Assembly: GCA_017477185.1 (NCBI GenBank)
Contig: JAFUXF010000004.1
Coordinates: 53,132 to 117,131, forward strand
Direction of reading: 5' to 3'
Source of the DNA: Alphaproteobacteria bacterium
GTDB lineage: Bacteria; Pseudomonadota; Alphaproteobacteria; RF32; CAG-239
Length of the DNA: 64,000 nucleotides
The notes under the pieces were generated by a model that saw only the letters and a program-made list of their open reading frames with translations, was not told the origin of the DNA and searched no databases. The position numbers and the translations under genes are program-made. Below are positions 14,194 to 61,613 of the stretch, piece by piece (positions within the stretch are counted from its first letter, which is position 1; each line of letters begins with the position of its first letter).

Positions 14194-14224
14194 TTGGATT
14201 GAGGACTAGGGCTCGAACCAGCGA
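14194..14224 (-). other. diverged inverted copy of a tRNA 3' half (possible att scar)
   Basis: The reverse complement tcgctggttcgagccctagtcctcaatccaa aligns with tRNA-Pro 14128-14158. The first 13 nt are identical and the ...ccaa end is shared. Confidence 0.4.
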
Positions 14225-14429
14225 AAAAGCTGTTTGACAAGGAGGAGCAGGCGAGACGGGAGTATCGCCGCACTTGCGACGACGCAGCTCAAGCTAAACT
14301 ACAAGAAAAGGCAGTAAAAGATGCTATTAAATTTACAAAAATTCATCGTGAAGAAGCGACTGTTTTAGAAGGTGATACATTTGATGTAATCTATGTAAAT
14401 CCGTTATCTGCAAAAATTTCGTTTAATGA

Positions 14430-14642
14430 GATAAAAGATTTACCGGCTCTTTAGCATATAATAATACCTTGTCTCAAAAAAGAGCTTCTGCAGTAGCGAC
14501 ATATTTGATTAACCGTGGTATTGCGGCAAGTCGTATCAGTGCGGCAGGAGTAGGTCCCTCTTATCCGATTGCATCTAATAGTACGGCAGCGGGCAGAGAA
14601 CAAAATCGTCGTGTCGAGATTTCTATTATCCAAATACAGTAA
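14430..14642 (+). pseudogene. OmpA/MotB-family C-terminal domain remnant
   Basis: The frame reads ...FTGSLAYNNTLSQKRASAVATYLINRGIAASRISAAGVGPSYPIASNSTAAGREQNRRVEISII. It has no start codon, and an in-frame stop lies immediately upstream at 14427-14429. Confidence 0.65.
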
Positions 14643-14688
14643 GATGATGATCAAGAAAGCCCTTGATTTGTTATCAAGGGCTTTTGTT

Positions 14689-15867
14689 TTAACGATTGTG
14701 TAAATCTCGCAGCTGTTTCAGATTTTTTATTTTCTGAAGCTGATTATTATGTTTTTTTTGCGAAACTTTCATTTCGTATAGAAAACGTTTCTGGTTAGTG
14801 TTTACATAATCTGCTATTGTTTGTGAATGTTCTTTTTGATTGTACACTTTTTGAAGGTCATTTAATAAAATTCTTGAAGGAACTTCTGAAATGTGCGATC
14901 TCGGATGTTTTTCCAAATATTTTTTAAGTGTGCTGCTGCGATAATTTGCCGGCAAAATTCCCTTTTTCTGTAAGTCATTTATGACAATTGTTGGTGCTCG
15001 ATTGCAAGCTTTTTCGAGATTTTGTGCAATTTCTATAGAAAGATTGTCAGAATTTATTTTTGCATGATTTTGCTTGTTAGAATTGTTTGCAACTATTTGT
15101 TTTTGCTGAGTACTTTTATCTTTAGCCTGACTATTTTGAGAAGCTTTCTTCTCAGTATTTACGGTGCTTTGATATTTTTGTTTGTTTTTAATAATGGTAG
15201 CCAGTGTGTCAGAATTTGTTTTTGATGATTGTTTCTGAGCCAGCGTGTCGTTTTTTGTAACTTCATGCCACGATGTTGTATCATTTGATACTTCTGATAC
15301 TTCTGTACGCACCGGTTGTGGTATTATTTTTTCTAATTTGGGCTTAATGAATGAATTGTAAAATCCGATTGCAGGTTTTACGGCAAAGAGGGATGCTCCG
15401 ACCAAAACCGTTCCTAAAATGTATTTTTTTCCTTTTTCCCATAATTTTTTAGGCAAATGAACTAATGTCGCCCCTGCGGAGGCAATCTTTTTCCCGATAT
15501 CCTTTACTTTTTGTTTCCATTTTTTTTGGATTTTAATGTCATTCAATTCTATGAAATTAGGATCAAGCCCTCTTTTTCTGTTGAGATTTGCCATGGCTTG
15601 TTTGGCTTCGGCTGTATATCGACCGTTTTCGTCATATCCCAGTTCTCGAATGATTTGTTCAATAAGACTGCAAGAGGTAGAATCGTTAATATTTACTTCA
15701 ACTTTATTGTTAGCCATACTAGACAAAATACTTAATAAAAGATGAGAACAGTGTTCTTCTCTCCATTCATTATAAGATAATTTGCTTTTGCTCTTTTTTA
15801 GCGAGTATAAATAGCTTTTAATGGATTCTGTATCTATGGATATTCCGCAATAAGTAATTGTTGACAT
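14689..15867 (-). CDS. hypothetical protein with a central TM segment and a K/Q/N-rich C-terminal half
   Basis: 392-aa ORF with an AAGGAAGG RBS. No motif recognised. Confidence 0.5.
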   Translation of the reverse strand: MSTITYCGISIDTESIKSYLYSLKKSKSKLSYNEWREEHCSHLLLSILSSMANNKVEVNINDSTSCSLIEQIIRELGYDENGRYTAEAKQAMANLNRKRGLDPNFIELNDIKIQKKWKQKVKDIGKKIASAGATLVHLPKKLWEKGKKYILGTVLVGASLFAVKPAIGFYNSFIKPKLEKIIPQPVRTEVSEVSNDTTSWHEVTKNDTLAQKQSSKTNSDTLATIIKNKQKYQSTVNTEKKASQNSQAKDKSTQQKQIVANNSNKQNHAKINSDNLSIEIAQNLEKACNRAPTIVINDLQKKGILPANYRSSTLKKYLEKHPRSHISEVPSRILLNDLQKVYNQKEHSQTIADYVNTNQKRFLYEMKVSQKKHNNQLQKIKNLKQLRDLHNR

Positions 15868-16069
15868 TTTTGTACCTTCCTTTCTTAAATTTTGGGTATT
15901 GTGTCATAAATAAACAAAAATGTCAATATGTTTTGTCTATTTTTTAAGCACTCTCTTTATTGACAATTAAGCAGAAATATACTTTGATAGGTGGCGTGAA
16001 TTTCATTTATTATTAGCTATTTCAGAATAAAGTAAAAAAATCTAATCAACATCGGTAAGGTGAGGGTGA

Positions 16070-16642
16070 ATGAATTATACAATACTTGTTAATAAGAAAA
16101 ATCTTTTATCCGAAGATTATGAGCCTGAAAATTTGGTCGAGATTCATGAACCGATGGGGGCAAAATTAGATAAAACTTATGTTAACAGGCTTAATGCTAA
16201 TGCATATAATGCTTTTAAGGAAATGCAGCGAGATGCCCTCAGAAAAGGATATGAGATATTTATTGATTCCTCGTACAGAACTTATGCGTATCAGGAGAAA
16301 GTATTTGCAGATGTCGCCCTAAAAAAAGGACTGGAGCACGCTCAAAAGTTTGTTGCTCCTGCCGGAGGAAGTGAACATCAAACAGGGTTAGCCTTTGATG
16401 TTATTTTCAGACGAAACGGTAAAATGATTGAAGAACAAAAAGAAGATGATGCGGAAATAAGGTGGTTGTTTGCAAATGCCCACAAATATGGATTTATTTT
16501 GAGATTTCCTAAAGGAAAAGAGTATATAACCGGTTTTAACTTTGAGCCGTGGCATTTCAGATATGTAGGGCAAAAAGTGGCAGAAGAGATATTTGTTGCC
16601 GGTATTACTTTGGAAGAATATTGCCAATCGCATTCTCTCTAA
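16070..16642 (+). CDS. D-alanyl-D-alanine carboxypeptidase, VanY/M15B family
   Basis: SSYRTYAYQ, GGSEHQTGLAFDV and FEPWHFRYVG, corresponding to the Zn ligands H-x6-D...H. Confidence 0.8.
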   Translation: MNYTILVNKKNLLSEDYEPENLVEIHEPMGAKLDKTYVNRLNANAYNAFKEMQRDALRKGYEIFIDSSYRTYAYQEKVFADVALKKGLEHAQKFVAPAGGSEHQTGLAFDVIFRRNGKMIEEQKEDDAEIRWLFANAHKYGFILRFPKGKEYITGFNFEPWHFRYVGQKVAEEIFVAGITLEEYCQSHSL

Positions 16643-16663
16643 GAGATTTTGATGGCTAACAAA

Positions 16664-17509
16664 TTATTCTTGTGTTGTGAAATTGCATTTATGTTTATAA
16701 ATAGGAAGTTTGAAAATCTTAATAAGGCGATAGCCGGAAGATGTTTTTTTGTTTGTATAAATAAATCGCCAAATTCTTTGTAGAAACAACTGCGGGCATA
16801 TTCCGTCACAGCCTTTAATTTTATACCCTTGGGCCACAACAATGCACCCGAATAAGCGTTCCATCACATGTGCTAACGTTCCGTCTCGCACCTTACCATC
16901 TGTCGGTTCAAAATCCGTCAATTGATATTTATTTTTAATCGGTTCTAATAAATGAGCGCGACACATAAACATGGTTCCGGCAATAAACGGCATGGATTTG
17001 GATGAATATCCGCATTTTTCTATAGCCTGTTTTACCGCCGCCTGAAGATTAGGTGTGCTTTTTCGAGAAATCAGGTATTGTGATCCAATCATGCCCAAAG
17101 ACTTATTTTTTGCAAATAGTTTGATGTTTTTCTTAAATTGCTGAGGTGTTCCCAGTAGAGAGTGTATCAGAAGTTTCGCCCATAATTCCCTTCCGATAAT
17201 ATAAGGACCAATGTGTGTTACCGAACCTGGAGCGTTATTTTTGGTATGAATTTTCAAAATAAGATCATACTTTTGCAAATCAATGTTGTGCAGAAATTCA
17301 ATAAATGGTCCGATATCATAACCGCGATTTTCAACGACTTTAACCCATGAATTTGAGTGGAAATTTTTAATATCTTGTATAAGCTCGGGCTGTTCTTTGG
17401 TCATGGTTACAAACAAATCATAAGGATAATCTTCTATATGCGACAACAACTGTTTGATTTGTGGCCACATATCAAAATAATGTAAATGCAAATGAACTGC
17501 TAAAACCAA
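16664..17509 (-). CDS. rhamnan synthesis protein F (RgpF)-like glycosyltransferase
   Basis: LAVHLHLHYFDMW...YDLFVT and ENRGYDIGPF...YDLILKIHTKNN resemble RgpF family motifs. Confidence 0.5.
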   Translation of the reverse strand: MVLAVHLHLHYFDMWPQIKQLLSHIEDYPYDLFVTMTKEQPELIQDIKNFHSNSWVKVVENRGYDIGPFIEFLHNIDLQKYDLILKIHTKNNAPGSVTHIGPYIIGRELWAKLLIHSLLGTPQQFKKNIKLFAKNKSLGMIGSQYLISRKSTPNLQAAVKQAIEKCGYSSKSMPFIAGTMFMCRAHLLEPIKNKYQLTDFEPTDGKVRDGTLAHVMERLFGCIVVAQGYKIKGCDGICPQLFLQRIWRFIYTNKKTSSGYRLIKIFKLPIYKHKCNFTTQE

Positions 17510-17554
17510 TTTTTACCCTAGTAACAAATAAACCACCCTAACGGTGGCTCTTTT

Positions 17555-17602
17555 AATTGGTGGGCGCTGAGAGGTTCGAACTCCCGACCCTCTCGGTGTA
17601 AA
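17555..17602. repeat. att core copy (orphan 3' half of tRNA-Val)
   Basis: aattggtgggcgctgagaggttcgaactcccgaccctctcggtgtaaa is identical to 49314-49361. Confidence 0.9.
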
Positions 17603-17767
17603 TTATATTAACCACCATTAAACACCGTTTCACACAGCTTAACATAGCTTAACACAACCTGTCAATACCCTTGACAGATAAAAAATAAAAGCCGTATAAA
17701 TATTTTTGTAACTTCACACGGTTTAACACAGCTTAACAATAAAAAGCGGGGCTATGGCGGGGCTAAA

Positions 17768-19021
17768 ATGGCAGGCAAAATTCAGAAATCAAAATTTTCA
17801 GGAATTCGCTATCGAGAAAGCGACACAAGAAAAAACGGAATAAGAAAAGATCGCTATTTCTTTCTAAGGTACAAAAGAAACGGAAAAGACATTGAGGAGG
17901 GTTTCGGTTGGGAATCGGAGGGCTTCACAGAATCCGCAGCTTATGAAGAACTTTGCTTGATTAAGCAAAACATTAAAACAGGATCCGGACATTTCAGCCT
18001 TAAAGAGAAAAGAGAGAAAGAACAGGCAGAAAGAGATGCCACCGCAGCCAAAAACATTACAATTAACGCCTTTTTTGAGGAATATTTCATTCCTTATCAC
18101 TTAAACAATAAAACAGAAAAAACAAAGGATAATCAAATAAAACTCTATGAAAAACATATAAAAAACGAGCTTGGCCATAAATATCTTAATGATGTTACGC
18201 GATTCGATATAGAGAAAATAAAAGCAGAAATGGTCCAAAAGAATTACGCCGCTGCAACAATAAATTATATAATTGGGATTATTAAAAGCATTTTTAACCG
18301 TGCAGCGGCTTTCGATAAGTTCGACAAGAAGAATCCGGCCGAACTTGTGGAATCCGTCATAAAGGACAATAAAAGAACGCGTTGGTTGACAAAAGAGGAA
18401 GCTGAAAAATTACTTTTTGCGCTTAAAACAATGAAATTAACGGATAAAAAGGCTTTTGCTTATGATTATTATGAAAAGTTCAAAACATCTCAGCTTTATG
18501 AAATGGCTTTAATAAGTCTATTTTGCGGTTTGCGAGCCAAGGAATTAAGATTTCTTACTGTTTCGGATGTTGACTTCAATACTGGCCAAATATTCATAAG
18601 AGATCCAAAAAACAAAGAAAGTCGATATGTTCCAATGCCGCAACTTATTTTTACGCTACTTAAACAACGTATTGATAATATTCTGGGGCTTGAGCCAAAC
18701 GATTATTTATTCCGGGCAAATAATGGGGAACAGCTTCCGGAAATATCCGATCAGTTCTATCGGATTGTCGCTCGGCTCGGTTTTAATGATAATATTGTAG
18801 ATGACCGGCAAAAGGTTGTTTTTCATACGCTCAGACACACTTATGCAAGTTGGCTTATTCAATCAGGCGTTCCTAAGTATGTCGTTAAAAAATTGCTCGG
18901 TCATAAAAAAGATGAAATGACGGATCGATATGCACACCTTGCCCCGGATAACTTTAATCAGGCTGCGCAAATTATAGATAATTCATATATGTTAGCGATT
19001 CCCTCGACTTCCGGAAGCTAA
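17768..19021 (+). CDS. int: tyrosine-type phage integrase
   Basis: C-terminal HTLRHTYASWLIQSG...LLGH...RYAHL, and an N-terminal arm-binding-like GIRYRE..DRYFFLRYKRNGK. Confidence 0.9.
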   Translation: MAGKIQKSKFSGIRYRESDTRKNGIRKDRYFFLRYKRNGKDIEEGFGWESEGFTESAAYEELCLIKQNIKTGSGHFSLKEKREKEQAERDATAAKNITINAFFEEYFIPYHLNNKTEKTKDNQIKLYEKHIKNELGHKYLNDVTRFDIEKIKAEMVQKNYAAATINYIIGIIKSIFNRAAAFDKFDKKNPAELVESVIKDNKRTRWLTKEEAEKLLFALKTMKLTDKKAFAYDYYEKFKTSQLYEMALISLFCGLRAKELRFLTVSDVDFNTGQIFIRDPKNKESRYVPMPQLIFTLLKQRIDNILGLEPNDYLFRANNGEQLPEISDQFYRIVARLGFNDNIVDDRQKVVFHTLRHTYASWLIQSGVPKYVVKKLLGHKKDEMTDRYAHLAPDNFNQAAQIIDNSYMLAIPSTSGS

Positions 19022-38822: not shown

Positions 38823-39029
38823 TCATGCTCCGGCCTCCGGTGATGGATTAATAAAACTATCTAGATTTATGTTTTTTTCTTTTGCTATATGGCGAATATT
38901 ATCAATTCTCCAACTAGGAATGTTTTTAGATTTATCCCAACCCTGAATCGTTGACACAGGCACAGAAATATCTCTACTCATTTGAGTTAGTCCGCCAAAG
39001 GCCTGAATTAGTTGACTTACATTTTGCAT
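38823..39029 (-). CDS. cro: Cro/YdaS-type HTH regulator
   Basis: 68 aa. Contains FGGLTQMSRDISVPVSTIQGWDKSKNIPSWR. Divergent from the cI-like gene. Confidence 0.7.
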   Translation of the reverse strand: MQNVSQLIQAFGGLTQMSRDISVPVSTIQGWDKSKNIPSWRIDNIRHIAKEKNINLDSFINPSPEAGA

Positions 39030-39045
39030 ATTTATCTCCTTAAAA

Positions 39046-39130
39046 ATTATGAAAATCGTAATATTTCAATAAAAAGATGTCAAGCATAAAATTACGAATT
39101 TCGTAATTTACTTTTTACGATTTTCGTAAT
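39046..39130. promoter_or_regulatory. tripartite operator in the cro/cI intergenic region
   Basis: 17-bp palindromes at 39046-39062 (attatgaaaatcgtaat), 39091-39107 (attacgaatttcgtaat) and 39114-39130 (tttacgattttcgtaat). A minus-strand TTGACA at 39084-39079 has its -10 inside the first operator. Confidence 0.75.
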
Positions 39131-39157
39131 ACACTAAAGAAAACAAAGGGCTTGACA

Positions 39158-39829
39158 ATGTACGAATTTATCAAAACACGATTAAAAGACATGGGGAAAA
39201 CCCAAAAGCAACTTGCTGAGGCAATTCATATTCAAACGCCTCATTTAAGTGCTATTTTTAAGGGAATTCGCCGTATTCAAGCAAGCGAAATTGCACCAAT
39301 TGCTCGTTTTCTCAATATCAATACAGAAGAATTTGCTCGCTATATCGCAGGAGAAAATAAAACAAAAGAACTATTGCCATTAGATATCAATACGATTTAT
39401 AGAGTTGGCTATGTCCAAGCAGGGAAATTTAATGAAGCGTGTCAATTACCGGAGGCAGAATGGGAAGCAATCCCTTATCCTGTCAATGATAATTACAAAA
39501 AATGTCATTTATTCGCTCTTGGCGTTCTCGGCGACAGCATGAATTTAATCTTTCCGCCTGAGAAAACGACTTTAATTTGTTGCCCTTATGCTGAATGGGT
39601 GGAATCTAACCCGGATCAGGACATTGAGGGTAAATATATAATTGCGTATCGTAAAAATGCAGATGGCTTATGCGAGGCCACTGTTAAGAAATACGCTAAA
39701 ATAGATGATAACACGATAATTCTTGTCGCAGAATCCTCAAATCCGGAAATCAAGCCTATTGTTATTCATCCGGATAATAATGAATATGACATCGCCGCCG
39801 TTGTTATTGGCGATATGCGGACATATTGA
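39158..39829 (+). CDS. cI: CI-like repressor (XRE HTH plus S24 LexA-type peptidase domain)
   Basis: KTQKQLAEAIHIQTPHLSAIFKG forms the HTH. The C-terminal domain has LGDSMN...KKY, the Ser/Lys dyad context. Confidence 0.85.
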   Translation: MYEFIKTRLKDMGKTQKQLAEAIHIQTPHLSAIFKGIRRIQASEIAPIARFLNINTEEFARYIAGENKTKELLPLDINTIYRVGYVQAGKFNEACQLPEAEWEAIPYPVNDNYKKCHLFALGVLGDSMNLIFPPEKTTLICCPYAEWVESNPDQDIEGKYIIAYRKNADGLCEATVKKYAKIDDNTIILVAESSNPEIKPIVIHPDNNEYDIAAVVIGDMRTY

Positions 39830-39841
39830 AAGGACACAAAA

Positions 39842-40609
39842 ATGAATAAAAAACTTATAATTACTTTTCTCTTTTTTTCTCTATGTGCCTGTCAAATCCC
39901 TACTTATCGCTATACTTCTCGTAACACAGGAGCAACATTAAAAGATAAAACCGTTGTAATATTTGAAAATGGAGGAAGTATTACAAACGCAAAATTAGTT
40001 GCAACTCTTCATAATATCTTAATAAACAATGGTATGAAATCCATTCCTATGGAGGAAGCTCTTGATAAAATCAGTAAGAAAAAAGTAAAAAAATATGATT
40101 ATATCGCCACTATTGATATTGTAAAAAATGTTTATCAAACATCACAAACAATTCCTATTTATGGAAAAACAGGAATCAACTCTATAAATACAACATCAAA
40201 TGGACAAGCATATACCAACATATCTGGAGATTATAATTCAAATAAAAATTATAATTATGGCGGCTATACTAAAACAGGCTCATTTAATGGTTATGCCAAT
40301 ACAAATTATTATGGCAATTCAACAACGAAAATAAATTATGATTATGGAATAACAGGATACCAAAATAGAATTGTAAATAATTTTTTAAGCTGTGTTTATG
40401 TTAGCATTCGAAAATTTGATTATACGACAAAATTTAACAATCTTCCTGTTGTTCACGAAAGTAGAATATGTGTTGATGACTATAGTAATGATGATGAGTT
40501 TATTAGCTATATTCAAGATATTTATAATCAAAATGTCCTTTCTATTGATACTTCTCTAGATTATACTTGTCAACATAATGGATTAACAGGAAGCTGCCAA
40601 CAAAACTAA
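39842..40609 (+). CDS. prophage lipoprotein, N/Y/T-rich (candidate superinfection-exclusion factor)
   Basis: Begins MNKKLIITFLFFSLCAC, a lipobox-like signal. Starts 12 nt after the cI stop. Confidence 0.6.
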   Translation: MNKKLIITFLFFSLCACQIPTYRYTSRNTGATLKDKTVVIFENGGSITNAKLVATLHNILINNGMKSIPMEEALDKISKKKVKKYDYIATIDIVKNVYQTSQTIPIYGKTGINSINTTSNGQAYTNISGDYNSNKNYNYGGYTKTGSFNGYANTNYYGNSTTKINYDYGITGYQNRIVNNFLSCVYVSIRKFDYTTKFNNLPVVHESRICVDDYSNDDEFISYIQDIYNQNVLSIDTSLDYTCQHNGLTGSCQQN

Positions 40610-40622
40610 GAAAGATACATAA

Positions 40623-41033
40623 ATGCTGCATTATTATCCAAATAGAGGAGAGGTTTTATTATGTGACTATCGCGGCTTCAAAGAACCGGAAATGGTAAAA
40701 GTTCGTCCGGTAATAGTTATATCTCCACGCTTTCGTTCTCGTCCTCGATTATGTACTGTTGTTCCTTTAAGTACAACCGCACCGGATCCGGTAGAATCCT
40801 TTCATATGACAATTTCATTTCCTCGTTTATTGCCAGAACCTTTTAATGCCCCATTCCATTGGATAAAAGCAGATATGATTAATACTGTATCAATGGACAG
40901 ATTATCTCTTATTCGCTGTGGACGTTTACCTAACGGACAAAGAAAATATTATCAAGAAAAGGCTACACCGGAGCAATTAGCTGAATTAGAATCTAAAATT
41001 CAGATCGCACTAGGAATAAAACAAAGGGGCTAA
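40623..41033 (+). CDS. PemK/MazF-fold (YifN-like) protein with no adjacent antitoxin
   Basis: PNRGEVLLCDYRGFKEPEMVKVRPVIVISPR...CTVVPLSTT matches the PemK N-terminal SH3-like pattern. Confidence 0.55.
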   Translation: MLHYYPNRGEVLLCDYRGFKEPEMVKVRPVIVISPRFRSRPRLCTVVPLSTTAPDPVESFHMTISFPRLLPEPFNAPFHWIKADMINTVSMDRLSLIRCGRLPNGQRKYYQEKATPEQLAELESKIQIALGIKQRG

Positions 41034-41259
41034 AAATAGCCCCTTAACAACACCATGTACCAATTGGTATCTCCGTACATGGCGACCTTCGACCGATGTC
41101 GAGGTTTTAAAAGCCCGATGCTAAAAGCAGAGCGGGAACAGTTCAAAATCTTACATACCTATGTGTCATATATATCATATTTTTTATTAACAGTCAATTA
41201 ATAAAAAGCACATATCCATAACAAACTTTCACTCCGCTTCATTTAGCTTCATTTTATCC

Positions 41260-41285
41260 ACCGCTGCAAAGCGGTATTTTTTTTG
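41260..41285 (+). terminator. Rho-independent terminator ending the cI-side transcript
   Basis: Stem accgct/agcggt followed by aTTTTTTTT. Confidence 0.65.
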
Positions 41286-41423
41286 CCTTGATTTTCCTTA
41301 ATATTTCATTTTTTACAAACTGCACTGTATAAAAATTATTTAATAAAAAATATTGACAAATATTCATAAAATATTTACATATTCCTCCTAATATGGTATT
41401 ATACCATTAGAGGAGATGATAAA

Positions 41424-41975
41424 TTGCCAAATATTGCTTTCAAAGTAAATCCAGACAAAGCACTTGAAGCGATTGTTTATATTGCTCATAAATTAGGTTG
41501 TGTGGATAAATACCACGTCGTTAAAACCATGTTTTTTGCTGATAAAGAGCATTTGAATAGATATGCCAGACCTATTTTAGGTGATACATATATCAGGATG
41601 AGAAATGGTCCGGTTCCATCATATGTTCTTGACATAATCAATCTGAAAGAAGATAAGATAAGTTTTGATGTTTTTGTGAAAGCAAAAGCGGCTCTAGAGG
41701 TCGGTTCGGATAAAAAACAGACAATAACAGCTAGACGAGAGCCAGATTTGAGCTTTTTTTCCGATACAGATTTAGAATGCTTGGATAATGCAATTAAGTT
41801 TTGCAAAGATAAAAATTTTGATGATTTAAAAGAAATTACACACGAAGAAAAAGCATGGAAAAAAGCTTCTATTAACGGTTGTATGGATTATGAATTGTTT
41901 TTAGATGATGATAATCCTTACAAAGAAGAAATTATTCAGGATTTAAAAGAAGATAGTTTGTGGATGGCTTTCTAA
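41424..41975 (+). CDS. SocA/Panacea (DUF4065) domain antitoxin-like protein
   Basis: KYHVVKTMFFADKEHLNRYARPILGDTYIRMRNGPVPSYV and SDTDLECLDNAI...ITHEEKAWKKA. TTG start with a GAGGAG RBS. Confidence 0.7.
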   Translation: MPNIAFKVNPDKALEAIVYIAHKLGCVDKYHVVKTMFFADKEHLNRYARPILGDTYIRMRNGPVPSYVLDIINLKEDKISFDVFVKAKAALEVGSDKKQTITARREPDLSFFSDTDLECLDNAIKFCKDKNFDDLKEITHEEKAWKKASINGCMDYELFLDDDNPYKEEIIQDLKEDSLWMAF

Positions 41976-41976
41976 A

Positions 41977-42348
41977 ATGGCTTTTAAGACCGGATATTTA
42001 TACTTTATCAACCCTTGCCAGGCCTCTGTTCCGCCTAAGCCTAAGTTAGCGGTTTGTATGTCAGCAACACATAGCTTATTTTATTTAATCAATTCGTGTG
42101 ACAAGGTGCGTCCATACCAACACGAAAAAGGGCATATTGTTATACTGGAACAACACTTATTGGTTGCTTTAGTGCATGATTCCTACATCAATGTTGCTAA
42201 ACCAAGGATTATTGAGAGCGGTGAATATTCACACTCAACAGAGCGAGAAAAAATACCCAATAACGTTTTATTAAAAATAAAAAAACAGGCTTTAAGTGAT
42301 AGAAAATTGCAAAGCATATATAAAAATATTATCAATAATCCTGATTAA
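41977..42348 (+). CDS. unassigned 123-aa protein, candidate cognate toxin
   Basis: Starts 1 nt after the stop of the Panacea-domain gene. There is a weak PemK-like pattern (GYLYFINP...KPKLAVCMS...DSYINVAKPRII). Confidence 0.45.
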   Translation: MAFKTGYLYFINPCQASVPPKPKLAVCMSATHSLFYLINSCDKVRPYQHEKGHIVILEQHLLVALVHDSYINVAKPRIIESGEYSHSTEREKIPNNVLLKIKKQALSDRKLQSIYKNIINNPD

Positions 42349-55346: not shown

Positions 55347-56942
55347 ATGGTAAAAATAATAAGATATGAGGTTTATGCAGATAAAGGAACAGGATGGCGT
55401 TTACTTGACCAATTTTCAGCAGAAGATCGTCAGAGTGCAACTTTTTGTGCAAAAGATGCAGAAGAAAATGGTAGTTCTGTTAAGATTGTTCGTGAGATTT
55501 ATGAGACAGATGACGGATCATTTCATGAGTCCGTTGAGTATGTTGGTGGCCTGAAAAATAAAAGAAAAATCAAATCGGTTGAAGAGGCAGTTTTTGATGA
55601 TTTAAAAGGAGAGTATAATGTTGAGGTTACTCCTTTTAAGTTATTGGCATCAAATCAAGTTTCAAAAGCTATTATGAAATTGGTTGTTATCGTGTTTTTG
55701 AGCTTGCTTTTTGCAAATATTATCACTTCTTTAGCCGTTCCGTTGATAGAATTTATGGTGCCGGATGAAAAACGTAAGAGTGTTTTATTTTGCGTTTTTT
55801 TTGTTATTTTTGTGATGTTTGCTGCGCCACTACTTTTCTATAAAGTTCCGTGGAATGTTTTTTACAGTTTACGCAAAGGAGAGAAAGAGCTTGTTAATGA
55901 ACGGAAGATTTTTCGTCGTGCTACAAATTTAATGAAAGGTTATACGCTTAATGATGATGGTCGGGAAGTTTTGACGCCGTCTTTTCCTGAGGCTCCTTTG
56001 GAATATAAAGAATATATTGTCGATTATTTATCTCAGATTCTCAATAATTTAGACGCAAAAATCAAACTAAGTGACGGATTTAATCGGTTAGGAGTGGAAT
56101 TGATTGTTTATGGCGGTTGCTTAGAATTATCGAGGTATGGACGTTTGGTTTGGGCAGAAGCTAATTCACTTTTATATGAAGCTTTTAAAATTTTAGAAGG
56201 AAAGCAAGTTGATTTACAGGGGTTTTATGATGCCAAAAGAACGTATGTTGACAGTAAAATTGCTGTTTTTTTAACCGGTGTCGGTTCTTATCTGATGTCT
56301 CAGGTTATTAACGGAGTGCCGATGGATGCCTCTGTGTTAAAAGTATCAATGGAAAAATGGATAGCCGCCAATACACATCCTGAAACCAATACGGAAATTA
56401 GTATTGCTGTGCCGGATGGTGAAGAGAAAGGGTTAAGTATTCTGTTTGAGTGTTTGGTTAATATCCGTTTAATCTTAAATATTTATGATGATGAAAAAAT
56501 TATTGGCAGCGATGAACAGGATAAGGTGTATGGTGATGTTCAAAAAATCTTATCTCGTTTGGTGGCTCAATATTATGGAGATAGTGTGATTGAGGAGGGG
56601 TATTTAACCTCTGTGCACTTTAGTAACTTAGGAAAAGCGGTGCAGTTCATGAGTGCTTTTAATAAAAATTTGTTTGATTATAAAGATAACCAGTGTTCTT
56701 ATAATTTAATTATTGATGAAAAAGCTGCTATATTGGATGTTCCTTCAGATAACTCAATAAATTTGAATAATTATATTGAGGATGTTTTAGATTATGGTTG
56801 TCAGCAAGAGGTTGTTGTTAATGAAATTATCAAAAATAATTTAACCAATACACCTTATCATTTTGAACTTTTGGGTAATAAAGTTTTGCGTCGGTCAGAA
56901 CAAACGGTTTCCTTGTATAAAATGAGTGGTTTTACTGAGTAA
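55347..56942 (+). CDS. hypothetical membrane protein (531 aa)
   Basis: Long ORF with two central TM helices. No motif confidently recognised. Confidence 0.5.
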   Translation: MVKIIRYEVYADKGTGWRLLDQFSAEDRQSATFCAKDAEENGSSVKIVREIYETDDGSFHESVEYVGGLKNKRKIKSVEEAVFDDLKGEYNVEVTPFKLLASNQVSKAIMKLVVIVFLSLLFANIITSLAVPLIEFMVPDEKRKSVLFCVFFVIFVMFAAPLLFYKVPWNVFYSLRKGEKELVNERKIFRRATNLMKGYTLNDDGREVLTPSFPEAPLEYKEYIVDYLSQILNNLDAKIKLSDGFNRLGVELIVYGGCLELSRYGRLVWAEANSLLYEAFKILEGKQVDLQGFYDAKRTYVDSKIAVFLTGVGSYLMSQVINGVPMDASVLKVSMEKWIAANTHPETNTEISIAVPDGEEKGLSILFECLVNIRLILNIYDDEKIIGSDEQDKVYGDVQKILSRLVAQYYGDSVIEEGYLTSVHFSNLGKAVQFMSAFNKNLFDYKDNQCSYNLIIDEKAAILDVPSDNSINLNNYIEDVLDYGCQQEVVVNEIIKNNLTNTPYHFELLGNKVLRRSEQTVSLYKMSGFTE

Positions 56943-57035
56943 ATATTGAAAAAAATACTTGTATATTCTCAGAATAAAACTTATCCTAACGGTAATCAGA
57001 TTTGTTATTTTTAGTAATTATGAAAGGGTAAGATT

Positions 57036-57833
57036 ATGACAGCACCTTTAATGCCTAAAGCAACGGCTGTATGGTTGGTTGAAAATACTACGTTAACGTT
57101 TAAACAAATTGCAGATTTCTGTGAACTGCATGAATTGGAAATTCAGGCAATTGCAGATGGTGATGTTTCTTTTAATATTATAGGATTGAGTCCGGTTGAT
57201 AACAATCAGTTAACTCTTGAGGAAATCAAGCGTTGTGAAGCTGATAGTTCGGCTAAATTGGTGGCTAATGTTTTGGAAAGAAATGTAAAGCTTAAAAATA
57301 CTAAAGCTAAAAAAATGTTGTCGCCGACACAGCGTAGTGAAAAGCCTAGTGCTATTTTGTGGATTATTAAGAATTGTCCGGAAGTCATTGATGCTCAAAT
57401 TTGCAAACTGGTTGGGACAACAAAACCGACAATTGATGCTATTCGTAAAGGGACACATCGTGATATGGTTAATATTCGTCCGAAGAATCCTGTTACTATA
57501 GGTTTGTGTTCGGAGAAGGATTTGGATAAAGCAATTACGTTATGTCGCACTCGTGCAGAGAATGCTCTCAAAGCAAAGGAGAAAAAAACAATAAAGAAGA
57601 AAAAGTCATTAGCCGCTAAGAAAGCGACAACAAAGAAGGCTACACCTAAGGCGGCAGCTAAAAAAGCGGCAACGAAGAAGGCTGCACCTAAGGCGGCAGC
57701 TAAGAAAGCGACAACAAAGAAGGCTGCAACTAAGTCAACAGCTAAGAAAGCGACAACAAAGAAGGTTGCGACTAAGTCAACAGCTAAGAAAGCGACAACA
57801 AAAAAAGCTGCACCTAAGAAAAAAGCTAAATAA
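57036..57833 (+). CDS. DUF1013 (TrcR-like) protein fused to a Lys/Ala-rich histone-H1-like tail
   Basis: The N-terminus MPKATAVWLVENTTLTFKQIADFCELHELEIQAIADGDV is typical of alphaproteobacterial DUF1013. The C-terminus has AKKATTKKA(A/T)xK repeats. Confidence 0.7.
   Translation: MTAPLMPKATAVWLVENTTLTFKQIADFCELHELEIQAIADGDVSFNIIGLSPVDNNQLTLEEIKRCEADSSAKLVANVLERNVKLKNTKAKKMLSPTQRSEKPSAILWIIKNCPEVIDAQICKLVGTTKPTIDAIRKGTHRDMVNIRPKNPVTIGLCSEKDLDKAITLCRTRAENALKAKEKKTIKKKKSLAAKKATTKKATPKAAAKKAATKKAAPKAAAKKATTKKAATKSTAKKATTKKVATKSTAKKATTKKAAPKKKAK
57615..57830. repeat. about five tandem 42-bp coding repeats
   Basis: Units gctaagaaagcgacaacaaagaaggctgcaac/ctaag... encode a 14-aa AKKATTKKAAPKAA period. 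Confidence 0.85.
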
Positions 57834-57853
57834 TTTTCCTATTGAAAAAGATA

Positions 57854-57878
57854 AAGCCGGACAAAATGTCCGGCTTTT
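57854..57878. terminator. bidirectional terminator between the DUF1013 gene and flagellin
   Basis: Perfect 9-bp stem aagccggac/gtccggctt. Confidence 0.7.
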
Positions 57879-57895
57879 GATGTCTATATATTATT

Positions 57896-58723
57896 TTAGA
57901 ACAGCTTTAATACAGATTGAGCAGCCTGAGAAGCTAAACTCAAAGAGTTAATAGCCAACTGCTGACGTGTTTGGAGAGCCAACATATTAGCAGACTCTTC
58001 ATTCATATCAGCCAAGGTCAACTTATCAGCACCTTCTTCTAACACGTTAATTAAGTTTGTTGTGAAACTTTCGCGTGTTTCAACGATAGAATAGTTGTTA
58101 CCGAAGTCAGAAGCGAAAGTACGCAATTTGCTGATAGCGTTTGTTGCTGCTGTAATAGCAGATCCAATAGCAGTGTTCTGATCTGCAACTTCTCCGGTAT
58201 TCCATGCAGCACCTGCAGCAATAGCTAAGTCGCCGCCAGTCGTGGCATTGACACCATTAATGATTAACTGGTTATCACGTCCTTCGTTGAAGGTAACGGT
58301 TAATGAACCGCCTTTTAACAAGTTAATTCCTTTGTAGCCGGCGTCAGTAGCTAATTTATCGATTTGTTCACGAATACTGTTAAATTGACCCATATATTTT
58401 CCACGAGCGGTTGCATCTGTGGTGTCTAAAGCAGAAGTTGCAACAGCTTTGGCTTGTTCAACATAAGAAGTAATCGCTTCAATACCTTCATCTGCAGCTT
58501 TGATGGTGGAGATAGCTTGCCCCATACTATCTAACAGAGAACTCAAGTCATTCGCACGATTGGACAATGATTGAGCGGTGTAGTAAGCACTTGGGTTATC
58601 AATAGCTGAGTTGACTTTTTTACCTGTTGCTAAACGCTCCTGTGTTTGGCTCATCAAATCAGATGTGCCTTGTAAAGACAACAAGTTAGAACGCATACTT
58701 GCGGTTAAAGATATATTAGACAT
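57896..58723 (-). CDS. fliC: flagellin
   Basis: Start at MSNISLTASMRSNLLSLQ (AGGAGA RBS). Has conserved N-terminal (ATGKKVNSAIDNPSAY) and C-terminal (LALQTRQQLAINSLSLA) flagellin helices. Confidence 0.9.
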   Translation of the reverse strand: MSNISLTASMRSNLLSLQGTSDLMSQTQERLATGKKVNSAIDNPSAYYTAQSLSNRANDLSSLLDSMGQAISTIKAADEGIEAITSYVEQAKAVATSALDTTDATARGKYMGQFNSIREQIDKLATDAGYKGINLLKGGSLTVTFNEGRDNQLIINGVNATTGGDLAIAAGAAWNTGEVADQNTAIGSAITAATNAISKLRTFASDFGNNYSIVETRESFTTNLINVLEEGADKLTLADMNEESANMLALQTRQQLAINSLSLASQAAQSVLKLF

Positions 58724-58865
58724 GGTTTTTCTCCTAATTCTGTGGACGTTACATACCGTTTTACTATCGGTACATTTTTTAATATACCACAAAAAGCACC
58801 CTCGTACAATCAAAAAAATACGAGTCTACCGAAAAACGAACATACTTTTAAGAAATCTTAAATAT

Positions 58866-59261
58866 TTACAATTGGTTAAAAAGTTCGCCAAAAACTTCAT
58901 CTTCTCTTTTAACTAATGCAGCCGCATTTTTTATGGCACTATAATAGTCTCCTTTAAGAATCGACTCGCTGATTGGGTCGATTAAAGGTTTTAGACTTGG
59001 GGCGGCTTGTTGCAAGTCTCTGACATAGTCAATATAGAATTTGTTTAGTTTAGAAGAGTCTTTGGCTAAGTACATTTGTTGTACAATGAAATAAATGCGC
59101 TTGCTGGGGGTATTTGCGTCAGACTCGCGCAAAATAAATTTTTCACGCAGAATAGGGACATTACCTTCAATGTAGAAGCGTGTTCTTTCATCATCATTGG
59201 TAATGAGGGCATCACCGATAATGATACTTTCACGGGGTTTAAGTTCTATTTTTAAAGGCAT
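58866..59261 (-). CDS. flbT: flagellar biosynthesis repressor FlbT
   Basis: Begins MPLKIELKPRESIIIGDALITNDD and contains TPSKRIYFIVQQMYL. Confidence 0.8.
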   Translation of the reverse strand: MPLKIELKPRESIIIGDALITNDDERTRFYIEGNVPILREKFILRESDANTPSKRIYFIVQQMYLAKDSSKLNKFYIDYVRDLQQAAPSLKPLIDPISESILKGDYYSAIKNAAALVKREDEVFGELFNQL

Positions 59262-59377
59262 TTTTATTCTCCTGTTCTGTGATGCGATAATATTATATAT
59301 ATAACTTTTATTTTTTTTTGCAAATCTTAATTTTCTCTTGTATATATATTGTAGGTGAAGTTGTTGAGGAACAGATT

Positions 59378-59800
59378 ATGCTTTATGTGCCTGAAAATTT
59401 TAATGCAAAAGAAAAAGCCGTTTATTTAAAGGCCTTGGTTTATGTTTTCAATCTGAGTAATCAGAATAAAATTAAGCGAGAATATTTGTTGCTACAATTG
59501 CAAAAAGCAAATATTTCTCAGGAAAAATATGAAGCAGTAAAATCAGCTTGTAAGATAGAAACGCTGATTGATAATATAAGAGGCTTGGATAATTTGCGTG
59601 CGCAAAGGTTTATTATCAGAGAGATGGTTATGCTAGCTCTTGCAGACCAAGATGTTACAGATGATGAAATTCGAGATATTTATCAAATTGCCGAGTCTTC
59701 AGGTATTAGTAGTGAAAAAGTAGGAGATTTCTTTATTTGGGCGGCTAAGGGAATTGAGTGGCAATTAGAAGGTATTCAGCTCGTAGAAGAAGATTTATAA
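59378..59800 (+). CDS. TerB-like domain protein
   Basis: The helical pattern with ...REMVMLALADQDVTDDEIRDIYQIAESSGIS resembles the TerB/DUF533 fold. Start at MLYVPE with a GAGGAA RBS. Confidence 0.4.
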   Translation: MLYVPENFNAKEKAVYLKALVYVFNLSNQNKIKREYLLLQLQKANISQEKYEAVKSACKIETLIDNIRGLDNLRAQRFIIREMVMLALADQDVTDDEIRDIYQIAESSGISSEKVGDFFIWAAKGIEWQLEGIQLVEEDL

Positions 59801-59801
59801 T

Positions 59802-61613
59802 ATGAATTATACAGAACCGCCCATTTTAACAGTTAAGGGTATTCGATTAGCATTTGGTACAAATCAGTTATTTTCAAATGTTGAGTTCGCCATTAATCGT
59901 GGTGATAAAATTTCATTGGTTGGGCGTAATGGAAGTGGTAAATCAACTTTATTAAAGGTTATCTCCGGTGTGCAGGAGGCTGATGATGGAGAGATTTTTG
60001 TGCAACCCCATACAAAAATTTCATATATGCCGCAAGAGCCAGATTTTTCAAAATATAAAACTTTGCGCGATGTTGTCTTATCCGGACTTCCGAAAAGTGA
60101 AGATAATTTGGATTATAAAGCGGATATTTTAATTAGAGAATTGGCAATTAGGGAAGGGCAATCTCCTCAAGAATCTTCCGGTGGTGAGCGTAAAAAAGCA
60201 GCTTTGGCAAAAGCCTTAATCGGTGAACCGGATATTTTGTTGTTGGATGAGCCGACAAACCATTTAGATATGCCGACTATTGAAAAATTGGAAAATGTTA
60301 TTCGGGATTTTAAGGGAGCGGTGGTTGTTATCAGCCATGATCGCATGTTTTTGAACCATGTTTCAGAAAAGATGTTTTGGTTAGATCGCGGTATTTTGCG
60401 CCAAAATAACAGAGGTTTTGAATTTTTTGAAGATTGGCAAGAGCAGGTTATTAATCAGGAAATTATTGAGCAAAAATATTTAAATAAAAAACTAGAGGAA
60501 GAAACAGAATGGTTGCATAAAGGTGTGACTGCACGACGTAAGCGTAATATGGGAAGGTTGCGTCGTTTACAACAGTTACGACAAGAGCGAAAAGAGCAAC
60601 TGAAACGTGTCGGTTCTATCAATTTAGAGGTGGAAAATGCTGATTTGCGCTCTAAAATGGTTATTGAGGCTAAGCATATTTTTAAAGAATATGGGGAACG
60701 GACTATTGTTAAAGATTTTTCGATACGCGTTATTAAAGGAAATAAAATCGGTATTGTCGGTCCGAATGGCGCCGGAAAAACAACTCTGATTAAATTATTG
60801 ACAAAAAGGTTGGTGCCGGACAGTGGTTTTGTGCGTATTGGTAAAAATTTGGAAGAGGCGTATTTTGATCAAAATCGAGACACCTTGGATCCTAAGAAAA
60901 CTTTGTGGCAGACCTTATGTGATAAGGGAGATCATATTTTTGTGCATGGACATTATCGGCATGTGGTTGCGTATTTGAAAGATTTTCTTTTTAAACCGGA
61001 TCAAGCGAAAATGCCAGTGTCGGCCTTATCCGGTGGTGAAAAAAATCGTTTGATGTTGGCCGTTGCCTTGGCTAAACAATCTAATTTTTTAGTTTTGGAT
61101 GAACCAACTAATGATTTAGATATGGATACGTTAGATTTATTACAAGAAGTTTTATCTGATTATGAAGGGACAGTTTTGATTGTTAGTCATGACCGCGATT
61201 TTTTAGATAGAGTCGTTACATCTATTATTTATATGTCCGGTGACGGAACTGCAACGGAGTATGCCGGCAGTTACTCTGATTTATTGGCAAAACAAAAAAA
61301 TGTTTTACCGAAGATTGCAGATAAAAAGAAAGTTCAAACCAGTAAAATTCCTGAAAGTTCTCGCACAGTAATTAAAAATGCTAAATTAAGTTATTATCAA
61401 CAAAGGTTGCTGGAAGTTTTACCGCAAGAAATAGAACAATTGGTAAAAGAGTTGGAGACTGTTAAAGAGGCTTTGAATGACGCTGATTTATATGTTGAAC
61501 AGCCAGAGGAGTTCAACCGATTGACCCTACGCTATACGGAAATTACGCAAGATATTGAAAATAAAGAAAATCAATGGTTCGAAATTCAAGAGCTGAAGGA
61601 ACAGCTAACATAA
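59802..61613 (+). CDS. uup: ABC-F family ATPase (Uup-like)
   Basis: Two ABC cassettes (GRNGSGKST, LSGGERKK; GPNGAGKTT, LSGGEKNR) and a C-terminal coiled coil. No TM domain. Confidence 0.8.
   Translation: MNYTEPPILTVKGIRLAFGTNQLFSNVEFAINRGDKISLVGRNGSGKSTLLKVISGVQEADDGEIFVQPHTKISYMPQEPDFSKYKTLRDVVLSGLPKSEDNLDYKADILIRELAIREGQSPQESSGGERKKAALAKALIGEPDILLLDEPTNHLDMPTIEKLENVIRDFKGAVVVISHDRMFLNHVSEKMFWLDRGILRQNNRGFEFFEDWQEQVINQEIIEQKYLNKKLEEETEWLHKGVTARRKRNMGRLRRLQQLRQERKEQLKRVGSINLEVENADLRSKMVIEAKHIFKEYGERTIVKDFSIRVIKGNKIGIVGPNGAGKTTLIKLLTKRLVPDSGFVRIGKNLEEAYFDQNRDTLDPKKTLWQTLCDKGDHIFVHGHYRHVVAYLKDFLFKPDQAKMPVSALSGGEKNRLMLAVALAKQSNFLVLDEPTNDLDMDTLDLLQEVLSDYEGTVLIVSHDRDFLDRVVTSIIYMSGDGTATEYAGSYSDLLAKQKNVLPKIADKKKVQTSKIPESSRTVIKNAKLSYYQQRLLEVLPQEIEQLVKELETVKEALNDADLYVEQPEEFNRLTLRYTEITQDIENKENQWFEIQELKEQLT

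Follow-up and report, generated by a model that had tools for sequence, protein, structure and literature searches.

Within the window (the whole 64-kb stretch of DNA that was analysed), a prophage of an uncultured gut alphaproteobacterium carries a cI-like repressor gene with two genes closely behind it on the same strand and, directly downstream on the opposite strand, a gene for a structured RNA. The features of this locus are as follows.

38823..39029, minus strand: cro-like small HTH gene, an ORF that is also a gene call in the source contig, divergent from cI
39030..39157, no strand assigned: divergent promoter/operator region with TTACGA-N-TCGTAA palindromes (aattacgaatttcgtaatt; ttacgattttcgtaa), from reading of the sequence
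39158..39829, plus strand: cI/LexA-type repressor with HTH_3 and Peptidase_S24 domains (Pfam), a 223-aa gene call
39842..40609, plus strand: 255-aa lipoprotein with a lipobox, 12-nt gap after cI
40623..41033, plus strand: YifN-type PemK/MazF-fold endoribonuclease of 136 aa, a putative toxin (PF02452, phrog_15698, fold), 13-nt gap after the lipoprotein gene
41014..41045, minus strand: intrinsic terminator of the RNA gene
41047..41139, minus strand: three-hairpin RNA core (P1, P2, P3), convergent with pemK
41140..41197, minus strand: region that may hold the promoter of the RNA gene
41260..41285, plus strand: intrinsic terminator, the first one after pemK (terminator scan)

The cI-like ORF starts at 39152 (TTG) or 39158 (ATG) and ends at 39829, and its product matched HTH_3 (1.6e-09) and Peptidase_S24 (9.8e-10) in Pfam, which identifies it as a cI/LexA S24 repressor. 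The product of the divergent cro-like gene gave weak YdaS/P22_Cro-type matches in the profile search, and the promoter scan placed a minus-strand promoter-like site at 39083-39055, inside the cro-cI divergent region. The order and spacing of the three plus-strand genes agree with a preliminary description of this DNA, which had also judged it probable that the lipoprotein gene and pemK ride on the repressor transcript. Since the scan found no plus-strand terminator between cI and 41260, and promoter-like matches were no more frequent than in shuffled sequence, this co-transcription is plausible, and the cI-lpp-pemK transcript likely ends at the terminator at 41260..41285. As this is the first plus-strand terminator, the 3' UTR of the mRNA would run antisense across the RNA gene. 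The locus had no megablast match among GenBank phages, and PADLOC holds no model for any of its four proteins.

The reading of the 136-aa protein as PemK-type was borne out by profile and structure searches. It matched PF02452 (PemK_toxin) with an E value of 4.5e-13 and 49.8 bits, where the cut-off is 23.1, and the same domain was present in all 120 PemK homologues among the matches listed. When its AF2 model (pLDDT 91.9) was compared by Foldseek with the solved MazF structures of S. aureus, B. subtilis, M. tuberculosis and E. coli, the probability was 1.0 and the TM-scores were 0.75-0.81, by which the SH3-like barrel MazF/Kid fold of the predicted structure was confirmed. The catalytic residues R28, S50 and E23, invariant in 46-54 family members, align with R29, T52 and E24 of E. 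coli MazF. We regard the protein as a putative endoribonuclease toxin, whose toxicity we infer. Its subfamily carries an insert at about residues 55-80 together with the motifs PEMxKxRP, W80-x-K82-x-D84, R93 and R107-x-Y109, and the best PDB sequence match of the protein reached only E 0.007. About 830 clusters at 50% identity (E <= 1e-10) belong to this subfamily, which spans Alpha-, Beta- and Gammaproteobacteria, Bacteroidota, Chlorobiota, Chloroflexota, Planctomycetota and delta-type lineages, plus their phages.

The preliminary description had presented this PemK as an orphan with no antitoxin-like ORF nearby. As far as proteins are concerned, this was right: the upstream neighbours in 57 genomic loci shared no common family, and a 66%-identical homologue stands as a lone gene in 75 contigs. 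A 48-aa ORF beside pemK in the window, at 41055-41201, was rejected as a gene because it is not conserved in L177 and L178, the loci of the closest PemK relatives (74-76% identity): its third codon is a stop in L177, and L178 lacks the ATG. A 59-aa ORF upstream of the 66%-identical homologue (L005) proved to be AT-rich junk and was likewise rejected. What had been missed was the RNA gene, which is conserved and lies on the other strand.

A covariance model of this RNA matched the core at full length (77.6 bits, E 5e-20), and 41047..41139 was its sole match in the 64-kb window. Including the terminator, the whole gene runs from 41139 to 41014 on the minus strand, and the fold z-score of the RNA in the window was -5.87. 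The terminator consists of a hairpin from 41045 to 41024 followed by UGUUUUAUUC; it lies antisense to the final codons of pemK, and the terminator-like site was scored on the minus strand only. Upstream lies a TTGACT box (41197 to 41192), 17 nt from TATATA (41174 to 41169), with TAAGAT (41153 to 41148) as the other possible box; the TTGACT box is kept in L178 and L013. The placement of the promoter is uncertain, since the promoter scan made no call there. Cultured carriers are Caulobacter hibisci KACC 18849, Chelatococcus sambhunathii DSM 18167, Acidithiobacillus concretivorus ATCC 19703, Devosia riboflavina IFO13584, Marinospirillum sp. ABH-597 and Pseudomonas chlororaphis, in which a primary transcript of ~90-125 nt with its 5' start at GUUCCCGC would be expected.

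The RNA stood beside PemK in 159/159 related loci with enough flanking sequence, which contradicts the orphan status of the protein. Model R1 found it beside PemK in the window and in 78/80 genomic loci, 67 viral loci also carried it, and in the remaining tested loci it was recovered without exception by model R2 with the filters off. The contig of L050, one of the genomic loci, ends at the pemK gene. There were no RNA matches elsewhere in about 1.4 Mb of flanks, and no intact PemK without the RNA among the tested loci. Searching from the RNA instead, we found an intact PemK beside 50 of the 61 full RNAs with room for one; some of the others lie beside PemK remnants and a few are RNA-only. RNA libraries gave no match to the window. 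For a Caulobacter relative, the only matches were RNA-run contigs over the pemK mRNA of a ~90-95%-similar organism, which do not define the ends of the small RNA, and E. coli genomes had no DNA similarity to a gammaproteobacterial pemK-RNA locus.

The structure of the RNA is supported by covariation, with 97.2% of cells paired compared with 28-47% in slid controls, compensatory double changes in 15/16 RNA pairs, and G-U pairs. Two conserved segments are single-stranded, J1/2 (UNAAGNCC) and the P3 loop (GAUNNCAA). Across the family, a sigma-70 profile, TTGAc-17-TAtaaT-6-(+1), is positioned on the +1 of the RNA, and 113/140 family RNAs are followed by an intrinsic terminator. The RNA is present as a single copy, mostly 17-19 nt past the pemK stop codon, and its orientation relative to pemK is tandem in 135 cases, convergent in 9 and upstream in 3-4. 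Because the promoter profile and the terminator are kept in the tandem, convergent and upstream arrangements, the RNA is a gene in its own right rather than a 3' UTR. By its covariation, promoter profile and terminator, it is a structured non-coding RNA of a new family. Rfam 15 gave nothing relevant for the window (E <= 10) or for 17 other loci (E <= 1-10); a BjrC68 match in L031 was rejected at 20 bits, below the threshold, and was absent from a Bradyrhizobium locus. Rfam does contain a family named 'pemK RNA motif', an RNA motif that Weinberg et al. in 2017 reportedly named for its association with pemK genes, and this motif had no cmscan match (Rfam 15) in the window (E <= 10) or in five other loci. 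We found no description of the PemK-RNA pair or of the RNA family in the searchable literature.

Type III toxin-antitoxin systems are often found on mobile elements or in prophages and work by abortive infection. Their toxin ToxN has a Kid/MazF-like fold, and in the classical systems the antitoxin is a tandem repeat array that precedes the toxin. Like ToxIN, CptIN, TenpIN and AbiF/RCd22, the present locus joins an endoribonuclease toxin, putative here, to an adjoining non-coding RNA gene; RCd22 is a structured RNA that neutralises the prophage AbiF through direct binding (PMC12373285). Unlike the toxins of these systems, ours is a bona fide Pfam PemK/MazF member, and instead of a toxin-processed upstream repeat array there is one three-hairpin RNA that has a promoter and a terminator of its own, usually downstream of the toxin and convergent with it in the window. 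The adjacent co-conserved RNA gene of a type III system is thus present, and the upstream tandem repeat array with a terminator is absent. In being single, structured, self-promoted and mostly downstream of the toxin, the RNA departs from the classical type III antitoxins, which counts against a type III-like reading. With the type II systems MazEF, PemIK and Kid-Kis, the locus shares the toxin fold and the catalytic Arg/Thr(Ser)/Glu positions, but antitoxin genes of the MazE/PemI/AbrB or RHH type are absent and no protein neighbour recurs, so that the adjacent co-conserved protein antitoxin of type II is lacking. Nor is the RNA an antisense RNA to the toxin mRNA as in type I, the overlap occurring only in the 9 convergent cases. 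For MazF-mx of Myxococcus xanthus, the antitoxin is the protein transcription factor MrpC, encoded elsewhere. MazF-mx itself is a solitary MazF, without an antitoxin gene next to it (PMC2701414), whereas here the conserved partner candidate is the neighbouring RNA.

On balance, we lean towards a type III-like toxin/RNA-antitoxin (abortive-infection) module that forms a moron within the repressor operon. In this proposal, the repressor operon of the prophage would hold two unrelated accessory genes, one for the lipoprotein and one for the YifN-type MazF/PemK. In the lysogen, the cI transcript would supply the nuclease, which the RNA, expressed from a promoter of its own, would bind and silence. 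A superinfecting phage that stops host transcription or speeds RNA decay would cause the loss of the RNA, and the freed nuclease could then cleave RNA and abort the infection. That the RNA binds the protein directly and serves as its antitoxin, and what triggers the release, we infer here. The existence of remnant and RNA-only loci, with no intact PemK lacking the RNA, is the asymmetry expected of an antitoxin. The prophage setting, with an upstream HTH/S24 gene in 28/76 viral but only 3/72 genomic loci, also favours the proposal, and AbiF/RCd22 is a precedent. Besides the single, mostly downstream RNA, what weighs against it is the uncertain promoter in the window, the short XRE proteins at some viral PemK starts, the lack of a PADLOC model for the protein and the sharing of P1 with PemK-less phage transcripts. 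A defence- or exclusion-type role for the locus, as suggested earlier, is a reasonable guess.

The universal linkage is silent on the direction in which the RNA acts, and the RNA might instead belong to a non-toxic ribonucleoprotein as its dedicated substrate, its cofactor or its specificity subunit, in which PemK might mature the RNA, be RNA-guided or process a regulatory sRNA. The single-stranded J1/2 and P3 loop could serve as recognition or cleavage sites, and the conserved catalytic residues of PemK are compatible with such activities. We hold this to be unlikely, though it deserves serious attention: the occurrence of RNA-only and remnant loci without the converse is a better fit to protection from a toxin than to a cofactor, and the place of the pair among other toxin-antitoxin and moron genes in prophage immunity regions fits defence.

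An improbable alternative gives the antitoxin role to the cI/XRE repressor upstream, as a protein antitoxin or regulator whose RecA-stimulated cleavage upon induction would free the nuclease and make it an SOS-gated toxin. Several arrangements are consistent with it. In L177 and L178, which lack the lipoprotein, the pemK start abuts the stop of an S24 repressor gene or overlaps it by 4 nt, and in Vibrio Vinavirales elements pemK lies 20 nt after a LexA-like gene. An HTH/S24 gene lies closely upstream (<=1 kb, same strand) in 28/76 viral loci, and in the viral loci L123, L132 and L161 a short XRE protein overlaps the start of PemK, so that a protein regulator or antitoxin may take part there; the solitary MazF-mx of M. 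xanthus, neutralised by the transcription factor MrpC, is a parallel. Against this, the cI of the window has no BLAST similarity (E > 2) to the repressors of L177 and L178 despite the 74-76% identity of the PemK proteins, and those two repressors are only 43% identical to each other. The lipoprotein gene also sits between cI and pemK in the window, and an HTH/S24 neighbour is found in only 3/72 of the chromosomal family members. As the repressors beside near-identical toxins are unrelated, we downgraded cI as a specific antitoxin.

Given the convergent arrangement in the window, the RNA could also act in a type I-like manner, pairing with the pemK mRNA at its 3' end and 3' UTR to control message stability. 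Its terminator overlaps the last pemK codons there, and the probable plus-strand read-through to 41260-41275 would create more than 100 nt of perfect complementarity. We doubt this strongly, because 135 of about 150 members are tandem and have no antisense overlap, and the RNA structure is conserved with compensatory changes that pairing to a coding sequence would not need.

The 5' hairpin P1 (GUUCCCGCUCUGC-loop-GCAUCGGGC) also heads many unrelated PemK-less phage transcripts, among them tRNA arrays, small RNAs and mRNAs, so at least P1 has a more general role. This opens a second, independent lead. Although it is a long shot, the nuclease-RNA pair may be a ribonucleoprotein immunity device directed against this conserved phage feature, with the P1 leader recognised or cleaved by the YifN-type MazF. 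The resident RNA would then be a decoy that holds the enzyme until phage transcripts with this hairpin flood the cell; conversely, phages could deploy the hairpin as an anti-toxin decoy.

The identity of the lipoprotein stood up to analysis, as its signal peptide (MNKKLIITFLFFSLCAC) carries the lipobox LCAC, whose Cys17 is invariant in all 7 family members, in keeping with a bacterial lipoprotein. The family is rare, with only 6 other clusters among 5.8e9 proteins, and no match was found in Pfam, PHROG, NCBIfam or PADLOC, or by tblastn against GenBank phages. The AF2 model (pLDDT 71.9) has a long N/Y/T-rich beta-hairpin, and its core gave weak LptE/PelC/CsgG-like matches, which weakly suggest an outer-membrane-type lipoprotein. 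Like Llp of T5, Cor, Bor and TraT, it is a lipobox protein at a prophage moron position, but no sequence-family match links it to any of them; a Lambda_Bor gene occupies the same region of the related phage L177. It probably acts at the envelope, e.g. by receptor blocking, for which the evidence is weak.

The co-occurrence of the lipoprotein and PemK in related loci was also checked, and the pairing was contradicted. In L173, a lipoprotein homologue (54% identity) follows a repressor 85% identical to that of L177, and beyond it at least 98 nt of non-coding DNA extend to the contig end with no PemK within reach, while in L174 the homologue lies far from any repressor or PemK. Nucleotide similarity to L177 and L178 covers 40623/40629-41138/41152, from the pemK start to about 120 nt past its stop, so that pemK and the RNA together make up the conserved unit. 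The lipoprotein gene also has a GC content of 27.6%, against 36.8% for the window. Judged by its gene neighbourhoods, it is an independent moron, unrelated to PemK. The earlier proposal that the two proteins form one exclusion or defence system, which has in its favour their adjacency and common operon in the window and on its own contigs, is therefore very hard to credit, given that the genes are apart in the nearest relatives (no lipoprotein in L177 and L178, no PemK in L173 and L174), that the similarity to L177 and L178 begins at the pemK start, that the GC contents of 27.6% and 38.2% are very different, and that one protein is exported and the other cytoplasmic.

MazF/PemK toxins called 'solitary' number in the thousands in annotations, which class them as type II toxins lacking an antitoxin. 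For one whole PemK subfamily, a structured RNA that is invisible to gene annotation appears to be the partner that was missing. If this RNA is the antitoxin, it would be, to our knowledge, the first RNA antitoxin for a bona fide MazF-family toxin, and it would represent a new type III-like architecture with a single self-promoted structured RNA. Prophage repressor operons would then also carry the pair as recurrent cargo, which would make it a likely lysogen defence. Taken from the sequences, these findings point to a widespread, undescribed RNA-controlled toxin system.

The repressor region of the window is laid out as follows, together with the features that mark the left side of the element:

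14081-14157, tRNA-Pro, rough left prophage limit
17768-19021, integrase, on the left prophage side with the tRNA-Pro
38823-39029, divergent from cI, cro-like gene
39158 (ATG; 39152 if TTG)-39829, plus strand, cI/LexA-type repressor (HTH_3 and Peptidase_S24)
39842-40609, plus strand, lipoprotein gene (255-aa ORF), starting 12 nt past the cI stop
40623-41033, plus strand, pemK (136-aa ORF), starting 13 nt past the lipoprotein ORF
41424-41975, plus strand, SocA/Panacea-domain protein (PF13274, 4.7e-22)
41977-42348, plus strand, 123-aa protein with no family match, 1 nt past the SocA/Panacea gene

Since the tRNA-Pro, the integrase and host genes on both sides frame it, the window is a prophage; queA, galE, a GGDEF protein gene and, on the right, uup lie outside its rough limits (regions 14081-19021 and 55347-61613). 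The element sits in an uncultured bacterium of the gut, and the QueA of this host shares 73% identity with the one from an alphaproteobacterial MAG. The preliminary description had given the cI, lipoprotein and 136-aa ORFs with their 12- and 13-nt gaps, which match exactly, and had considered it probable that both downstream genes share the repressor transcript. Because no plus-strand terminator was found between cI and 41260, and promoter-like matches there were no commoner than in shuffled sequence, joint transcription from the repressor promoter is a plausible inference. The cro/cI intergenic region (39030-39157) carries TTACGA-N-TCGTAA-type palindromes (aattacgaatttcgtaatt; ttacgattttcgtaa), probably the operators of the repressor. 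Directly after the pemK locus, 41424-42348 (plus strand) holds a second, separate toxin-antitoxin-like pair that has a promoter-like site to itself (41374-41402, TG-extended), an arrangement suggestive of a PanA-type antitoxin and a toxin of unknown kind.

The PemK/MazF fold proposed for the 136-aa protein was borne out by a PF02452 PemK_toxin match above the gathering score (E 4.5e-13) and by an AlphaFold2 model (54 homologues, pLDDT 91.9) that superimposes on solved MazF structures with probability 1.0 and TM 0.75-0.81, at merely 17-21% identity; a sequence-based search of solved structures returned nothing nearer than E 0.007. The protein also matches phrog_15698 (5.6e-23), a family without an assigned function, and PADLOC has no model for the protein. 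When aligned by profile, R28, S50 and E23, which are invariant in the family, correspond to R29, T52 and E24 of E. coli MazF; catalysis there depends on R29 and T52, and E24 is the position mutated to inactivate the enzyme. Given this correspondence, the protein is likely an active RNase. It belongs to a distinct 130-145-aa subfamily, called 'YifN (PemK superfamily)' in some sources, with invariant motifs of its own (PEMxKxRP, VPLS, W80-x-K82-x-D84, R93 and R107-x-Y109), and the clusters (50% identity) recovered by an exhaustive profile search number 1301 for E <= 1e-3, 828 for E <= 1e-10 and 214 for E <= 1e-30.

The DNA downstream of pemK was aligned from the window, L177 and L178 (the phage loci with the closest PemK relatives), a chromosomal locus, a Bacteroidales MAG and a viral contig, and the alignment shows conservation of a non-coding block in which compensatory changes can be seen. 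It encodes a structured RNA with the following parts:

P1 hairpin: 5'-GUUCCCGCUCUGC-loop-GCAUCGGGC
after P1: UNAAGNCC
P2: variable hairpin
P3: 6-7-bp stem, inner 3-bp stem, GAUNNCAA loop
3' end, after P3: intrinsic terminator

RNAalifold on 25 sequences gave 16 pairs, 12 with compensatory changes. Across 78 distinct sequences, 97.2% of cells were paired versus 28-47% with slid partners, and double changes occurred at 15 of the 16 pairs (311 double-change cells versus 13-60, G-U pairs being frequent); fitting this alignment to the model biases it towards the structure, but the margin is large. The three-hairpin fold is present in 116 of 140 copies and a terminator directly follows the RNA in 113, while the upstream profile of 139 distinct copies reads TTGAc (-35 to -31), a 17-nt spacer, TAtaaT (-12 to -7) and 6 nt to model position 1. 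Because promoter profile and terminator persist whether the RNA lies in tandem downstream of pemK (135), convergent (9) or upstream (3-4), it is a gene in its own right and not a 3' UTR. Neither Rfam 15, including a family named pemK motif, nor a full-text literature search yielded a match to the RNA or a description of this MazF-RNA pair, respectively.

On its own, the P1 hairpin is found in at least 120 viral contigs that lack PemK, always 6 nt past a TAnnnT box, that is, at transcript +1, where it precedes tRNA arrays, other structured RNAs, ORFs or merely a terminator (mini-sRNAs of hairpin plus terminator). Examples come from viral contigs L179-L258 (L196:2353-2409, L195:974-1043 and L184:9347-9423), in which PemK is absent and the hairpin has no Rfam family; two P1-bearing contigs also carry Glutamine-II riboswitch aptamers above the gathering threshold (L198:7960-8015 and L215:6941-6997). 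Since divergent PemK-linked RNAs replace P1 and retain the joint J1/2, P2 and P3, the PemK-specific part appears to be the 3' two-thirds of the RNA, with P1 a general module at the 5' end.

Covariance model R1 found one RNA copy beside PemK in the window, at 78 of 80 genomic loci (the contig of one of the other two, L050, stops at the gene) and at 67 of 80 viral loci, with no matches elsewhere in ~1.4 Mb; model R2 with filters off recovered every remaining tested locus, one with the RNA upstream of PemK. A metagenome pattern scan starting from the RNA gave 68 stretches, 61 with room for the gene, and 50 of these 61 held an intact PemK in tandem; the rest comprised PemK fragments in four, about five RNA-only stretches and three doubtful matches. 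Metagenome contigs L340, L349, L359 and L347 keep an intact RNA beside a truncated PemK, and L299, L300, L316, L335 and L336 carry the RNA without any PemK, a decay pattern typically left when the immunity component of a pair outlasts the toxin. No tested locus had an intact PemK without the RNA, and this one-way asymmetry is what a protective role of the RNA against the protein would produce. We regard the association itself as virtually certain. The MazF-fold protein had been called an orphan, which holds insofar as chromosomal loci show no recurrent protein neighbour; the RNA gene beside it had been overlooked.

The best-supported reading, to which we give slightly better than even chances, is that pemK and the RNA form a type III-like toxin-antitoxin or abortive-infection module. 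In the lysogen, a MazF-family RNase would be produced from the repressor transcript, the separately transcribed structured RNA would keep it inactive, and the RNase would be set free once the RNA is no longer replenished. The toxin of ToxIN is likewise held inactive by an RNA and freed when that RNA is not replenished. The prophage system AbiF/RCd22 has a similar mode of action (PMC12373285). A less likely alternative is a non-toxic RNP in which the RNA serves as substrate, cofactor or guide.

An antitoxin or third component might also be supplied by the repressor or by an XRE protein. In viral contigs, an HTH or HTH+S24 gene lies within 1 kb upstream on the same strand at 28 of 76 PemK loci, versus just 15 such genes in all remaining flanks, and 3 of 72 bacterial genome loci have one. 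The same order, a LexA-like gene and then PemK, recurs in Vinavirales elements of Vibrio in GenBank. Based on this enrichment and shared order, the slot behind the repressor is a preferred home of pemK. One such element, L001 (Vibrio phage 10N.237.312.D05_PE001, PQ189291.1; positions 4369-5633), of the small tectivirus-class (Vinavirales) prophage type of Vibrio cyclitrophicus, has PemK (43% identity) behind a LexA/S24 gene, with a weak RNA-model match ~115 nt downstream (E 0.03, R2 with filters off). However, the repressor probably does not serve as a specific protein antitoxin: the window cI has no detectable similarity to the L177 and L178 repressors (E > 2) although the toxins are 74-76% identical, those two repressors share merely 43%, chromosomal PemK members have no recurrent upstream gene family, and a 66%-identical homologue (75 contigs) is a lone gene between glyoxalase and peptidase genes. 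A small ORF upstream of this homologue proved to be AT-rich promoter DNA, not a gene.

Antisense control of pemK by the RNA is a further, less likely reading. At most other loci the RNA lies on the pemK strand, its first nucleotide 17-19 nt past the stop codon, whereas the window has:

41139 to 41047, minus strand, RNA core (77.6 bits, E 5e-20, sole match in 64 kb)
41045 to 41024, then UGUUUUAUUC, minus strand, RNA terminator hairpin, scored on this strand only and overlapping the final pemK codons
41197-41169 (TTGACT-17-TATATA) or 41153-41148 (TAAGAT), minus strand, uncertain RNA promoter candidates
41260-41275, plus strand, first plus-strand terminator

The hairpin behind pemK is thus the terminator of the RNA, not of pemK, and the 126-nt transcript has a predicted fold of -50 kcal/mol (z = -5.9). 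The cI-lpp-pemK mRNA probably runs antisense over the RNA gene, possibly as an extra, lineage-specific layer of regulation.

The pairing of lipoprotein and PemK as one system, as first proposed, fails on co-occurrence in the nearest relatives (L173-L178). The PemK homologues of L177 and L178 (74% and 76% identity) stand directly behind an S24 repressor gene without the lipoprotein, their starts abutting the repressor stop in L177 and overlapping it (ATGA) in L178, and nucleotide similarity of the window to both runs from the pemK start to ~120 nt past its stop (40623/40629 to 41138/41152). Phage L173 has a repressor 85% identical to that of L177 followed by a lipoprotein homologue (54% identity) and then at least 98 nt of non-coding repeats up to the contig end, including three direct ~19-nt copies (CATAAAATCAACGATATTA-like) at L173:5775-5872; in loci L174-L176 a 45%-identical lipoprotein is remote from any repressor or PemK. 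The lipoprotein is therefore a separate passenger. Just downstream of pemK and the RNA, L177 carries a Lambda_Bor lipoprotein gene (4461-4754, minus strand), so the region is a moron hotspot in which differing lipoproteins are exchanged. The window lipoprotein has a lipobox (LCAC, Cys17 invariant), a GC content of 27.6% versus 38.2% for cI and pemK, no family in Pfam, PHROG, NCBIfam or PADLOC, and only six other clusters in 5.8 billion proteins. Its model, of moderate confidence (pLDDT 71.9; residues 121-161 poorly predicted), combines an alpha/beta core with a very long N/Y/T-rich beta-hairpin and weakly matches a viral 'LPS-assembly protein' (LptE-like, E 2.4e-4), PelC (E 8.7e-3, probability 0.99), CsgG and LptE. 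It may act at the envelope, for instance by plugging or masking a receptor in the outer membrane, but this is no more than a reasonable guess.

Overall, the observation behind the preliminary description was confirmed and its interpretation supported in part. What the analysis really brought out is a MazF-RNA gene pair, undescribed and phylogenetically broad, that is often carried in prophage repressor operons.
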